Below are positions 4,826 through 59,588 of a stretch of 64,000 nt of DNA, in pieces. The stretch's first letter is position 1. Every line of letters starts with the position of its first letter. A program made the position numbers and the translations under genes. Below the pieces are notes generated by a model, which was given only the letters and a program-made list of their open reading frames with translations, ran no database searches and was not told where the DNA came from. Origin of the DNA: Candidatus Melainabacteria bacterium 17Bon1m. Lineage in GTDB: Bacteria > Cyanobacteriota > Vampirovibrionia > Obscuribacterales > Obscuribacteraceae. The stretch lies in the NCBI GenBank assembly GCA_032128875.1, contig JAVLKG010000002.1, forward strand, positions 800,001 to 864,000. Reading direction: 5' to 3'.

Positions 4826-5423
4826 GGTCTAAAGTTCCCAGAACTAGTAGCAAGAGAATCCAACAAATGTCGGAATCCCCAACTTTTCGACTGCATCATA
4901 GATTTTTCGGCCTTGTCCTTCGGCGAATACTAATCGCCGTTGTTTACTCTCAATTTTCAACTGCACATAGACAACATTGCCGAGATATCGTCGAGAAATT
5001 GAACTTCCCCGATTTTGGCCTGGGCTTCTTCTTTTGAGACAAGCATGGATTGCAATTCACTGAAAGAGAGTCGAGGTGTCAATAAATCATTCACGAATCC
5101 TTGGTAGATGCAGATTCCTGCATAGAGATAGCAGGTGACGTTGTTCCTCGAAAGCGGTTAACCCATTCGCCCGGTATAAAGTAGGCACAAACTAGCACAA
5201 TGCAAATGATTGCAGTGGTAATGAATCTGCTCAGGCTCAGTGGCAAGATCATTTGAAAACTCCATTCTCTGGAGTTCACTATGACAGCGTGCCCGGCCAT
5301 GAACACTCGGCAACACGCACCAACTTTGGATTTGTGGTTTGCAGGCACGCTTATAGTGGGCATCTTACGGACACTCATGTGGTCCTGCTTTTGTCGCCAC
5401 CCGGAGAACCATGAGATGATGAA

Positions 5424-5753
5424 ATGAGGCATGCGCTAAGAGGCGTAACTTTGAGATTTTTTTGCTACCTAGCTGTAGTGTTTGTTCTAGGGTGTGTAAG
5501 ACCAGCGTTGGGAGAGCCCACCCTAAGCGAGCTACTGGCGGAAGACGGGCCACGTAATTGGTCGCATGTTTTGGCAGCCGTATCGTCTGTGGTTTCTCTG
5601 GCTCTCGCTGGTGTATTTGTTTGTCGTACCAAAAGGTCAGCCGGGCTCAAGGCCATGGTGGCTGTCTGTATTGTCATCGCGGGACCGATGATTTGCCATT
5701 TGGCTTACTTTTGGCTATGCCAGCTCTTGGGTAAACCAGATTGTTGTTTATGA
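5424..5753 (+). CDS. Hypothetical membrane protein
   Basis: 109 aa with a signal-like N-terminus and two hydrophobic helices. Confidence 0.45.
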   Translation: MRHALRGVTLRFFCYLAVVFVLGCVRPALGEPTLSELLAEDGPRNWSHVLAAVSSVVSLALAGVFVCRTKRSAGLKAMVAVCIVIAGPMICHLAYFWLCQLLGKPDCCL

Positions 5754-5900
5754 TCTGCTCCAAATTTTTTGGACGGGACTTTTACCTGGTTTATGGTTCT
5801 GCGGCAGTGTGGGAAGCACGCTGTTCAGGGTATTAGGAGGCTACCTTAGCATGCGGTGTAAAATAGAGAGAAACGGCGCCAGTGCCTGCGACATTACTAT

Positions 5901-24414: not shown

Positions 24415-24517
24415 GAAGGTTAATCGTTATCGGTTTACCTTCCAAAAAAAAGAAGTTAAACCGATAACGGTTTTCCTTCCACTGAACCGGAAGTTTATTC
24501 GTTAACGATTAAACTTC
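24415..24517. repeat. Three tandem 28-bp palindromic elements
   Basis: 24415 GAAGGTTAATC-GTTATC-GGTTTACCTTC; 24452 GAAGTTAAACC-GATAAC-GGTTTTCCTTC; 24490 GAAGTTTATTC-GTTAAC-GATTAAACTTC. Confidence 0.9.
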
Positions 24518-27223: not shown

Positions 27224-27251
27224 GAAGGTTAACCGATAACGATTTACCTTC
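27224..27251. repeat. 28-bp palindromic element
   Basis: GAAGGTTAACC-GATAAC-GATTTACCTTC. Confidence 0.9.
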
Positions 27252-42975: not shown

Positions 42976-43003
42976 GAAGGTAAACCGTTATCTGTTTACC
43001 TTC
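42976..43003. repeat. 28-bp palindromic element
   Basis: GAAGGTAAACC-GTTATC-TGTTTACCTTC. Confidence 0.9.
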
Positions 43004-48170: not shown

Positions 48171-48198
48171 GAAGGTAAACCGTTAACGGTTTAACTTC
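48171..48198. repeat. 28-bp palindromic element
   Basis: GAAGGTAAACC-GTTAAC-GGTTTAACTTC, 10 bp after the fusA stop. Confidence 0.9.
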
Positions 48199-57776: not shown

Positions 57777-58406
57777 ATGCCTCACGATAATGCACCACTT
57801 GCCGAAGTGATCTCTTCGTCCATTACTGGTGTGGTGGCACAGTGTTTGATGTCTTCCGACAAGGACGGGATGCCCGATACGCCCAAGCCACGTTTTGGCA
57901 GTTTCTTGAAAATCCGTACTGTTAGTAATCTAGATGTTTTAACTGTTGTGCATAATGTCATAACAGGCTCTCCTGATGCTGTGCACCAACCCTGGGCACT
58001 AGGGCTTTCACGCGAACAGTTACGAGAAGAGCAACCGCATATTTTTTCTCTTTTGCGAACGGAAGTTCATGCAGTTGTTGTCGGTTACATCGAAGGCGGC
58101 CATGTATTTCAGCATTTGCCGCCTGTACCACCCGAGGTGCATGATTTTGTGTATTTAGCCAGCGATGAAGAAATTCGTCAGGTTACGGAAGGCTTTGATT
58201 TCCTGCGATTGATTGCGACAGTCACAACAGTTCCACAGGATGAGCTGGCTGCAGCGAGTATTCGCGAAGCACATAAGGCACATGGGAATGACTATTCATT
58301 TCTAGTTGAAGCGGGACAAGCGCTATCGCATGTTTTCAAAAACGATTTCGATCGACTCGTAACGATCTTACGCAAGATTCGCCCGGGAACACCTGCTCGC
58401 TCGTAG
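57777..58406 (+). CDS. HAS-barrel domain protein
   Basis: AEVI..S.T..VAQC, P.FGSF, LS..QL..EQP.IF.LL.T, Q.LPP.PP.VH. Confidence 0.75.
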   Translation: MPHDNAPLAEVISSSITGVVAQCLMSSDKDGMPDTPKPRFGSFLKIRTVSNLDVLTVVHNVITGSPDAVHQPWALGLSREQLREEQPHIFSLLRTEVHAVVVGYIEGGHVFQHLPPVPPEVHDFVYLASDEEIRQVTEGFDFLRLIATVTTVPQDELAAASIREAHKAHGNDYSFLVEAGQALSHVFKNDFDRLVTILRKIRPGTPARS

Positions 58407-58430
58407 CGCGAAATGGAGCATTGAGGTTTA

Positions 58431-58458
58431 GAAGGTTAACCGTTATCGGTTAACCTTC
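58431..58458. repeat. 28-bp palindromic element (perfect arms)
   Basis: GAAGGTTAACC-GTTATC-GGTTAACCTTC. Confidence 0.92.
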
Positions 58459-58565
58459 CAAACCTCTTCTTTTGGGGCCGAAAATTTTGTTGTCAGTATT
58501 AGATTTGTTTTGAACTTTTTGTCCGTAGGACTCGTATTCAAATGTATGAGTTCGAGGGAACGGAT

Positions 58566-59588
58566 ATGAGTGTTAAGCGTCCAGCCGATATTGCATATGA
58601 ACTTGCACAAGCAGCGTTACCTGCTCTAGTGGCTGAGTTTGGACCGGAAGCGAAAGCAAAATCCATAGTGCTTGGAAAGCTTGCGCAGAGAGAAGTTATT
58701 GTTTGTGCTCATTGCAGAGCCGAAAACAAAATTCCGTCGGAAGAAATCCGGATGTTTTTGTGCTGCGAATGCCGAAAGCAGATTTGGGTTACTGCAGACA
58801 CGAATTTCCGCAGAGTGCGCTTGTTCTTTGTACGTCTCGGCATTATGCGATTGCAGGAAATGGGAATCTGTATCAACGCCAATCAGGCGTCCAAATTGTT
58901 CGGTGTTTCTTACAACACGGTCAGCGGATTTTACAAGAAATTGGGAATCTCTGTAATTTCTTTGATGCCAGATCGCTCCGTGGAAGTCCCGACCAGCTTT
59001 AGCATCTCCGTTGTCTGCAGGCGTACAAGACAAACACAGGCAGAGAAAGCACCTTTTGAAGAAGAGTTTGAAATGCAAAAAAACGCTGCTGAATCCCCGG
59101 ATTCGCCATTTCAAATGAGTATTGATACTTTGAATTCCACACTCTCTGAATTGGAATTACAGATTCTGGAAATGCTAAAAGACAAGACAGTTTCGTTAGA
59201 AGAGTTAAATGCAGAAATAAAGGACAGTAGTGCTTCTATATCGAGCGCGCTGACAATGCTCGAGTTGAGTGGACATATTAAGGCAAGCTTTGGCAATAAA
59301 TTTTCGCTCGCCAATTCTCTATCCTTGAAAAATCTGGATTGTGGCGAAAAGGAAAAGGCGATCGCCGAAAGCTTCAATCAGTTCATAAAGGACTACTTTC
59401 AGGGAATCGGAAGAAAAAATCTCCAAGTTTATTCTTCGTTCAATTGGTTCGCATTTGATCGAAATTTCTGGTCAATCAACCGCCTGAGAGACTTTTTCAT
59501 TACGTTTCCATATATTCCACATGAGGAGATTCTTGATTTTGTAACTCCACTAAGCTTCAAGATCATTCCGCGGTTTGATAGTTCGTAA
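58566..59588 (+). CDS. IS1595-transposase-derived Zn-ribbon/HTH protein with winged-helix insert and no intact DDE core
   Basis: CAHC-x15-CCECRKQ.WVTADT.F; A.KLFGVSYNT HTH; VEVPTSF; DprA-like wHTH; ESF...IK...QGI.RKNLQ.Y. ORF track starts at 58542. Confidence 0.65.
   Translation: MSVKRPADIAYELAQAALPALVAEFGPEAKAKSIVLGKLAQREVIVCAHCRAENKIPSEEIRMFLCCECRKQIWVTADTNFRRVRLFFVRLGIMRLQEMGICINANQASKLFGVSYNTVSGFYKKLGISVISLMPDRSVEVPTSFSISVVCRRTRQTQAEKAPFEEEFEMQKNAAESPDSPFQMSIDTLNSTLSELELQILEMLKDKTVSLEELNAEIKDSSASISSALTMLELSGHIKASFGNKFSLANSLSLKNLDCGEKEKAIAESFNQFIKDYFQGIGRKNLQVYSSFNWFAFDRNFWSINRLRDFFITFPYIPHEEILDFVTPLSFKIIPRFDSS

Follow-up and report, generated by a model that had tools for sequence, protein, structure and literature searches.

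What becomes of a transposase-like gene whose catalytic core has been replaced, and does its product read the long palindrome that stands directly upstream of it? The question is raised by a locus in a 64,000-nucleotide stretch of Candidatus Melainabacteria bacterium 17Bon1m (GenBank assembly GCA_032128875.1, contig JAVLKG010000002.1, positions 800,001 to 864,000, forward strand). This whole stretch is called the window, and coordinates given without a contig refer to it. The genome to which it belongs (G000) comprises 7.55 Mb in 35 contigs and is 93% complete. The gene at 58566..59588 encodes a protein built from the parts of an IS1595-family transposase, and the palindrome at 58423..58466 precedes its promoter. 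We propose, with a probability of roughly 0.6, that the product is a domesticated, catalytically dead IS1595-derived transposase that binds its own upstream palindrome, the binding being suggested by the association of gene and repeat.

An IS1595 scaffold with a winged helix in place of the DDE core

The gene and the parts of its product are as follows.

58554..58559, plus strand: Shine-Dalgarno-like GAGGGA, 6 nt 5' of the ATG at 58566; GAGG-like words stand at the same place in orthologs
58566..59588, plus strand: coding sequence of the IS1595-derived, DDE-less protein, 340 amino acids (aa) from M9; the alternative start at 58542 gives 348 aa
58695..58787, plus strand: IS1595-type zinc ribbon, residues 52-82 (C55, C58, C74, C77), which aligns with the ribbon of true IS1595 transposases
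58824..58958, plus strand: helix-turn-helix region including GVSYNT, residues 95-139, with helices 95-106, 113-120 and 124-139 in the model; aligns with the IS1595 helix-turn-helix
58980..58994, plus strand: remnant of the first catalytic strand, VEVPT for VE(V/A)DE, with P150 aligned to the invariant Asp
59019..59078, plus strand: conserved motif RRTxxTPAxKxPxEEE..Q, residues 160-179, with a predicted local distance difference test score (pLDDT) >90 in the model
59136..59330, plus strand: DprA-type winged helix, residues 199-263 (PF17782, E 5e-7), filling the place of the RNase-H core
59346..59564, plus strand: C-terminal helical region, residues 269-341 (GIGRKNLQVY...DR..W), in high-confidence alignment with the IS1595 C-terminus (..vs.khLq.YlnE..fR.N.R)

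The open reading frame (ORF) spans 58542..59588 on the plus strand. The likely start is 58566, because the relatives begin at M9 (all 16 relatives of less than 90% identity start at the matching residue in the alignment) and GAGGGA lies just upstream. From the end of the 28-nt palindrome core it is 84 nt to the first ATG and 108 nt to this likely start. An original prediction, made from the letters of the stretch, had put the ORF about 110 bp after the repeat; the position 58431 that opened its interval is the first base of the palindrome and not of the ORF. With 42.7% G+C against 48.1% for the window, the ORF is AT-rich, as that prediction had it. The residue landmarks read in the protein are GVSYNT (120-125), VEVPT (147-151) and GIGRKNLQVY (288-297). 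The single Pfam domain over the cut-off is DprA_WH at residues 199-248 (E 5e-7), which corresponds to LSELELQILEML...ALTMLELSGHI, and an NCBIfam scan of the protein returns regulator matches below threshold only. A word-indexed search finds 18 relatives of 340-356 aa and 38-97% identity, among them one each named 'Candidatus Melainabacteria bacterium', 'DNA-binding transcriptional regulator YhcF (GntR family)' and 'hypothetical protein'.

The protein descends from an IS1595 (ISXO2-like; PF12760 + PF12762) transposase and keeps the same order of parts, from the N-terminal helix through the CxxC...CxxC ribbon, the helix-turn-helix and the VEV.. strand to the C-terminal ..RK.LQ.Y...DR..W helices. 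Our reference was a profile of nine full-length IS1595 transposases, whose source genomes belong to the same phylum. In hhalign, a family alignment of 19 sequences matches it at 97.5% (E 4.9e-12) and one of 98 sequences at 99.6% (E 2.4e-24), the latter nearly full-length, with residues 22-334 on 15-313 of the transposase profile. The likeness first noticed in the zinc ribbon, the helix-turn-helix and the C-terminal RKNLQ is borne out over this entire range. The aligned parts are a leader helix (FPTE..C in the family consensus), the ribbon, the helix-turn-helix, the VEVPT strand against VE(A/V)DE, and the C-terminal helices, where the family reads GISRKYLQ.YL...DR.RW against vs.khLq.YlnE..fR.N.R in IS1595. 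The four ribbon cysteines are invariant in 19/19 sequences; Pfam Zn_ribbon_IS1595 (PF12760) is matched weakly, below its cut-off, in 6 of the 19 members (best E 0.0065).

A protein search of G000 hits four places: the gene itself, paralog 2 on contig C4 (36% identical), paralog 3 on contig C3 (28% identical), both 349-aa ORFs, and one true IS1595 transposase on contig C13, which is matched by residues 53-137 (E 0.00135) and carries PF12760 and PF12762 both above their cut-offs. Paralog 3 shows a weak PF12762 match (profile positions 101-146, E 0.039) in the same C-terminal region. A structure search of the Atlas gives, as a lead only, an IS1595 transposase cluster with a TM-score of 0.51 over 235 residues. 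In the same resource, 214 residues align structurally with a 271-aa Melainabacteria cluster, 28% of whose members carry Zn_ribbon_IS1595; this cluster may represent a relative that lacks the winged helix, and would then bear on the order of events. The C13 transposase (L008, 1114-2031) is the only clear IS1595 transposase of G000. It has N at the aligned third catalytic residue and no terminal inverted repeats were found around it, so it may itself be decaying.

Unlike IS1595 transposases, the family has neither the DDE triad nor the RNase-H fold, and a winged helix stands there instead. Both catalytic Asp residues are invariant in the reference set (9/9 each). At the first of these positions the family has P in 30, S in 23, A in 7, L in 6 and D in only 5 of 98 members, which confirms the loss of the first motif predicted from VEVPT. 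The region expected to carry the second Asp is the winged helix. For the third residue, the Glu of 'ESF' had been taken as a landmark, which is questionable: when the profiles are aligned, the catalytic Glu of IS1595 falls ~4 residues upstream of ESF, E276 is E in 15/98 members, and the third catalytic position is not conserved. No complete acidic triad is left, as had been claimed. DDE_Tnp_IS1595 (PF12762) has no match in any of the 19 members among the matches listed (25 of 41 families).

Pfam finds DprA_WH (PF17782) in 19/19 members, and this winged helix shares 28% identity (E 2e-5) with its counterpart at the C-terminus of the DprA of G000. Unlike DprA, the family has the winged helix embedded in a transposase scaffold and no DNA_processg_A Rossmann-like domain: PF02481 is absent from the window protein and, among the matches listed, from the member scan, whereas the true DprA of G000 carries it (E 5.7e-75). 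AlphaFold2 models the protein with a pLDDT of 62.9 from a shallow alignment and of 92.0 (predicted template modelling score 0.80) from 98 sequences. The deeper model shows four short ribbon strands, the helices at 95-139, a strand at 147-150, helices up to 197, the winged helix at 203-256 and then four C-terminal helices; it contains no five-stranded RNase-H sheet. Residues 201-263 superpose in VIA-align on the winged helices of IclR/TtgV, MarR-type and Z-alpha proteins (Z 10-11, root mean square deviation 1.1-1.6 Å, 57-63 residues), and a wide search confines the match to residues 189-267. Foldseek against the PDB returns, for both models, weak winged-helix regulators only (best E 0.016-0.024), and the N- and C-terminal parts are without a match. 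No solved IS1595 transposase surfaced, and the transposase-derived parts are therefore not comparable with a structure. A two-copy (homodimer) prediction with the 98-row alignment scored 0.00 and speaks neither for nor against a dimer. Between the strand and the winged helix, R161, T165 and E174 of the motif at residues 160-179 are (near-)invariant across alignments of 21 and 98 sequences. Alignment and model together show a DDE core swapped for a DprA-type winged helix, as the original prediction had suspected, and with it the loss of catalysis.

The gene is fixed in place. The upstream gene (57777..58406) has a HAS-barrel domain in the Pfam scan and the downstream, convergent gene encodes an ABC-transporter permease. 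The same HAS-barrel and permease neighbours are found in 8/8 orthologous loci of other Obscuribacterales genomes (two loci are cut by contig ends), with fmt and rsmB downstream and opp-like genes upstream. The upstream genes are shared within other paralog groups too. Across these loci the neighbours are 69-98% identical in protein sequence and this gene 49-54% (89% in the nearest genome). Against the nearest genome, the ratio of nonsynonymous to synonymous substitution rates (dN/dS) is 0.18 (dN 0.051, dS 0.28), compared with 0.04-0.07 for four neighbours, in a comparison that leaves out rsmB because of misaligned rows. Purifying selection acts on the gene, which evolves several times faster than its neighbours. 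The conserved synteny, the dN/dS of 0.18 and the low identity relative to the neighbours make it a fixed, functional and fast-evolving gene, and the claim of a domesticated transposase stands. Unlike IS1595 transposases, it is vertically inherited at a fixed locus, and a search of the locus flanks found no inverted repeats around the ORF, in line with the earlier failure to see any. The upstream 209-aa protein has the HAS-barrel as its sole domain (E 6.6e-7) and lies beside the family gene in all orthologous loci that reach that far.

The picture of a lone domesticated copy does not hold, since the gene belongs to a large family specific to its lineage. Among 1.84 billion cluster representatives, a profile search returns 490 matches with E≤1e-30 and 719 with E≤1e-10; most of these are 330-400 aa long and match end to end. 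Order-wide, 85 of 101 genomes (G000 included) match at E≤1e-15. Within the same bacterial family 84 of the 97 other genomes are positive, with 1-22 matches per genome; the sister family gives 0/3. Among 301 genomes sampled across the phylum a full-length match occurs in G000 only, and 14 further genomes match only profile residues ~173-279, the winged helix, in ORFs of DprA size. Among the genomes searched, the family is confined to one family of Obscuribacterales (non-photosynthetic Cyanobacteriota), where it has expanded. In one genome, G316, a family gene is present as two adjacent ORFs of 231 and 145 aa (C1:3965214-3966180), probably a frameshifted copy, and five more ORFs of 130-169 aa match the ribbon and helix-turn-helix only (profile positions 41-133), two of them with identical scores.

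Palindromes, paralogs and a shared promoter type

The region between the upstream gene and the start codon holds three elements.

58423..58466, no strand: long palindrome, the proposed binding site; core GAAGGTTAACCG-TTAT-CGGTTAACCTTC at 58431-58458, outer arms GAGGTTT/AAACCTC
58482..58496, plus strand: conserved motif AAATTTTGTTGTCAG between palindrome and promoter, also upstream of the orthologs and of paralog group 2
58510..58537, plus strand: promoter resembling those of extracytoplasmic function (ECF) sigma factors, TTGAACTTTTT-N12-CGTAT, with GAACTT -35-like and CGTATT -10-like

The core GAAGGTTAACCGTTATCGGTTAACCTTC at 58431-58458 has perfect 12-nt arms, which extend to 20-nt arms at 58423-58466 that are 95% complementary. 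As RNA it folds with -36.1 kcal/mol (z -4.87). All 8 orthologs have a palindrome at the same upstream position. Their arms differ between genomes, the symmetry is kept by two-sided changes (GTTAGAGCGATATCGCTCTAAC, GTCTGACCGTTAACGGTCAGAC and GTTAAACCGTTAACGGTTTAAC are examples), and every copy has outer stems of its own, the arms reaching up to 30 nt. In one of the orthologous loci (L026 of G404, ~5414-5900), ~500 extra bases and a small ORF separate the HAS-barrel gene from the palindrome; there the palindrome stays with the promoter of the family gene and not with the HAS-barrel stop.

The same arrangement recurs at the paralogs. Each paralog locus read has a palindrome centred on CG-WWWW-CG, followed in the genus of G000 by AAATTTTnGGTTGTCAG and then by TTGAACTTTTT-N10-12-CGTA. 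In a survey of 39 family loci from 12 genomes, which covered 600 nt upstream and allowed one mismatch, an arm of at least 10 nt is found in 30. In G313, 10/10 paralogs have the core and 9/10 have arms of 15-32 nt; the arms, private to each paralog, surround a core common to all, AACCG-(ATAT/TTAA)-CGGTT, and ~8-30 nt separate the end of the palindrome from TTGAAC. This 4.2-Mb genome holds 22 ACCGWTAWCGGT cores in total, 10 of them at family genes, against 8 in a backwards control. G000 has 20 CG-WWWW-CG-centred palindromes with arms of at least 10, three of which precede the three paralogs. Their arm variants correspond to the paralog closest by:

Variant A: this gene, C2:858 kb; 15 copies, 8 inside C2:824-871 kb
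Variant B (GAAAAAAGRCCGTTAACGGYCTTTTTTC): paralog 2, C4:503 kb; 5 copies, 4 within C4:479-523 kb
Variant C (AACCGAATCGTTATCGATTCGGTT): paralog 3, C3:856 kb; 3 copies, all within C3:795-890 kb

Apart from the copy at the gene itself, 7/14, 3/4 and 2/2 copies lie near the matching paralog. A similar cluster exists in G316, a single contig with 46 AACCGWTAWCGGTT sites against 2 in the control: 13 of the 46 lie within 40 kb of a paralog at 2.379 Mb, at least 6 of 14 sites fetched from the cluster share the arms of that paralog (AAAATAAACCG...), and six distant sites differ. D-variant palindromes, of the kind that precedes group-4 paralogs in other genomes, occur in G000 at C6:52806, 95890 and 95987; no family gene follows them, and no group-4 paralog was found by protein search in this 93% complete genome.

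The sites also change together. In each of five related genomes GAAG-N6-CG-N4-CG-N6-CTTC is found 13-26 times, compared with 0-1 in the controls, and the dominant variant is genome-specific. On the contig of G401 that carries the ortholog, four of five sites lie at the exact positions of G000 sites (offsets -15.5, -10.3, -0.1 and +13 kb), and these four carry the G401 variant, identical in 3/4, which recurs in at least eight G401 sites. The positions are orthologous and the sequences genome-specific, which argues that the palindrome sites are old and change in concert within a genome. A common, co-evolving reader would explain this concerted change, and so would gene conversion.

Other copies of the palindrome in the window are given below.

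24415-24442, 24452-24479 and 24490-24517, no strand: three tandem copies with a spacing of 37-38 nt between convergent genes, resembling a REP cluster
27224..27251, no strand: copy 7 nt past a gene end
42976..43003, no strand: copy between divergent ORFs, with an orthologous site in G401
48171..48198, no strand: copy between convergent genes, with an orthologous site in G401

With the copy at 58431 these make seven members of the palindrome family in the window (at 24415, 24452, 24490, 27224, 42976, 48171 and 58431); the chance expectation for matches to the 28-mer is zero (100 shuffles). The copy at 58431 had been singled out as the best one, and it is indeed alone in the window in matching the 28-mer without mismatch. 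It is not specific to the gene, since G000 has 14 copies at ≤5 mismatches, all of them intergenic. Tandem triplets similar to the one at 24415-24517 occur in G348 (C1:853645-853726 and C1:3309903-3309998). Rfam finds no family at the palindrome or the leader, only chance miRNA-like matches (E ≥0.25), and for the window as a whole lists three tRNAs. Short-read assemblies break at the repeat: in three public runs the contigs all end within the palindrome (58433-58448), and the contig of a fourth run, possibly the source of this DNA, spans it. Three RNA-labelled runs give contigs of 80-148 kb at even depth and are for that reason uninformative on transcription. Among true IS1595 loci, 2/5 have clear terminal repeats of 33-36 nt, whose sequences bear no relation to that of the palindrome. 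These repeats lend no support to an origin of the palindrome from two fused insertion sequence (IS) ends, nor do they argue against it.

ECF promoters in general carry AAC and CGT. Passages of PMC4336711 quote GAACTT (-35, RpoE) and CGTATT (-10, RpoE2) for such promoters. In 38/39 family loci the stretch from palindrome to gene contains a TTGAACTTTTT-like word (≤2 mismatches), and TTGAACTTT-N10-14-HYGTAY occurs 20 times in G000 against 2 in a backwards control. The motif precedes the three paralogs and ORFs with Mg_chelatase/ChlI (ComM-like), RecJ, DnaB, RadC and Y1_Tnp (IS200-like) domains, and it also stands 5' of a DUF1800 protein, an esterase and several ORFs without a Pfam match. The 20 sites may form a DNA-processing regulon of an alternative sigma factor, a candidate drawn from the motif. 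They include C3:521538, C3:1076482, C10:89547, C2:386133 and C4:124251, all outside the window. No palindrome was seen among those non-family promoters with the motif that were looked at, and neither the palindrome nor the ECF-like motif was called in a scan for sigma-70 promoters and terminators. In the genus of G000, AAATTTTnGGTTGTCAG is conserved between palindrome and promoter, at the same place in L002 and L020-L030. G[TA]TGTCAG with TTGAAC 8-25 nt on occurs four times in G000, twice at family genes. In G313 no room is seen for the AAATTTTnGGTTGTCAG motif because the palindrome nearly abuts the promoter.

Weighing the readings

Four observations suggest that the protein binds the palindrome: the near-constant adjacency of the two, the private arm variants that cluster around the gene they match, the joint sequence change of sites at orthologous positions along with an unusually fast evolution of the protein, and the likeness to the layout of an ancestral IS. 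In insertion sequences, the transposase binds a terminal repeat that adjoins the promoter of its gene and controls this promoter, and the zinc ribbon and helix-turn-helix module of IS1595 transposases binds the element ends. The protein would accordingly be a sequence-specific DNA binder, probably a two-fold symmetric one, and its cognate site would be the long palindrome with the centre (A)ACCG-WTAW-CGGT(T) that immediately precedes the promoter of its gene. This arrangement would mirror the ancestral order of terminal repeat, promoter and transposase gene. The extra palindromes in the tens of kilobases around each paralog would be further binding sites, where binding might serve termination, insulation, the organization of DNA or the upkeep of the palindromes. 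Protein and sites would diverge in step, which would account both for how fast the protein evolves and for the joint change of its sites at orthologous positions. Transcription would start from an ECF-sigma-type promoter shared with comM-like, recJ, radC, dnaB and IS200-like (RAYT-like) genes, and we propose that the protein is therefore made together with this DNA-processing regulon. The original prediction had held its link between repeat and protein to be speculative. The paralogs are preceded by palindromes of the same kind, and the link now appears as a strong statistical and evolutionary association, from which binding is a probable conclusion.

Several points weigh against binding. The link to the palindrome is wholly associative as read from these genomes. 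Gene conversion, and not co-evolution with a reader, could have made the sites change in concert, and template-switch correction could keep arms perfect. Nine of the 39 surveyed loci are without an arm of at least 10 nt (~6 have shorter or doubly mismatched arms, and ~3 lack any core). A group-1 and a group-2 gene of G405 share one palindrome, so that arm specificity is not strictly one-to-one. The binomial P values for clustering range from 1e-12 to 1.6e-4, with windows picked after seeing the data. The promoter call draws on the motif and on consensus sequences, and the start of transcription is putative. The hairpin in the window lies 25 nt past the upstream stop and is followed by the T-rich TTCTTTTG; taken alone, it could be an intrinsic terminator. 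Finally, 14/14 copies in G000 are intergenic and mostly just 3' of genes, which fits a REP-like or terminator role that needs no reader.

The last two points also favour the main rival, which we consider unlikely. It accepts a domesticated IS1595 derivative but takes the palindrome as a REP-like terminator or insulator hairpin that would protect a tightly controlled gene against read-through, while the protein would bind different DNA or be a regulator elsewhere. By a crude ORF map, 12/14 copies in G000 lie beside at least one gene end, the tandem triplet at 24415-24517 resembles REP clusters, and the upstream gene is co-oriented in every locus read, all as expected of such a hairpin. However, the T-run directly after the stem is missing in most orthologs, so the hairpin is probably no conserved canonical terminator, and 2/14 copies lie between divergent genes. 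In G313 the palindrome stands almost only before family genes (10/22 cores, compared with 8 in the control). Perfect arms of up to 32 nt, paralog-specific variants, clustering and concerted change are also unlike ordinary terminators.

A second alternative is clearly less probable. Here the protein would act mainly by protein contacts in DNA processing: the winged helix and RRT..TPA..EEE would dock recombination or replication proteins of the same regulon, and the palindromes would be hairpin substrates and not operators. The winged helix is indeed of DprA type and resembles that of the host DprA, protein-binding winged helices of the RPA32C type appear among its structural matches, and the motif at residues 160-179 is invariant. 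The same promoter motif precedes ComM-like, RecJ, RadC and DnaB genes. Yet this motif is the sole link of the family to transformation, and dprA has no such motif in the 250 nt upstream; moreover, winged helices of this shape mostly match DNA-binding regulators. That gene and palindrome form a still mobile, non-autonomous element, moved in trans by an IS1595 or other transposase and adjacent to the palindrome through an ancestral insertion preference, is very improbable: some insertion sequences do target REP-like hairpins, there are up to 22 copies per genome, and G000 harbours both a true IS1595 transposase and an IS200-like gene, but synteny is fixed in 8/8 genomes with upstream genes shared within other paralog groups, the paralogs are just 28-36% identical, flanking terminal inverted repeats are absent, dN/dS is 0.18, and the palindromes are intact and not split by insertion.

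Relation to known systems and meaning

A domesticated, DNA-binding IS1595 derivative with its own palindrome would be comparable in organization to RAYT/REP. Passages of PMC5581495 and PMC3116915 describe RAYTs as domesticated IS200-like tyrosine transposases with cognate extragenic palindromes (REP/REPIN); as far as these passages go, both systems have a non-self-copying, vertically inherited transposase-derived gene beside intergenic palindromes, with paralogs that go with different variants. The RAYT/REP trait of a single-copy, vertically inherited gene beside extragenic palindromes appears here as adjacency and association. The ancestry, however, is DDE IS1595 and not HUH/Y1: Pfam finds no Y1_Tnp (PF01797) in the window protein, and a separate Y1_Tnp gene lies elsewhere in G000. 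Having no catalytic residues, the family protein cannot itself cut and move repeats, unlike RAYT. The copies are few (~13-46 per genome) and clustered around the gene rather than dispersed, and one palindrome stands on the promoter side only, whereas RAYT genes have repeats on both flanks. The term 'IS1595' occurs 0 times in the passages of PMC5581495.

ParB/parS is a DNA-binding protein with palindromic sites clustered around its own gene. The few palindromic sites concentrated in the tens of kilobases around the gene of the presumed binder are similar to this. Unlike ParB/parS, there is no relation in sequence or fold and no adjacent partner ATPase gene, a genome holds several paralogs, and the strictly intergenic sites have far longer arms.

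Domesticated transposases are well documented in eukaryotes, and the main bacterial examples are RAYTs; TnpB-derived regulators are another. Titles and abstract starts, with subscription journals outside the scope, show no bacterial domesticated IS1595 derivative, the on-topic cases being ciliate or eukaryotic Merlin, and those on Obscuribacter transposases and on domesticated bacterial transposases contain nothing on this family.

The locus presents a clean domain swap, in which a host-type winged helix takes the place of the catalytic core inside an otherwise intact transposase scaffold. The swap was followed by a lineage-specific expansion, whose members keep a long, often perfect palindrome and one alternative-sigma promoter type. 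This makes the family a tractable system for the co-divergence of DNA-binding specificity and sites among paralogs, and possibly a second, independent route to a REP/RAYT-like pair of repeat and reader. It also provides a first handle on a candidate DNA-processing regulon in uncultured relatives of cyanobacteria. A wider and quite tentative picture is that Obscuribacteraceae have a repeat-and-reader system built on a dead DDE transposase, in which each of up to 22 fast-evolving paralogs would recognize a private palindrome placed before its gene and over the surrounding tens of kilobases, reader and sites co-diversifying. It might mark or organize chromosomal neighbourhoods, or hairpin DNA in recombination or transformation, and its expression would depend on an alternative sigma factor common to comM, recJ, radC and dnaB. 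If true, this repeat-reader system would be a functional analogue of RAYT/REP or ParB/parS of unrelated origin, with no catalysis by the reader.

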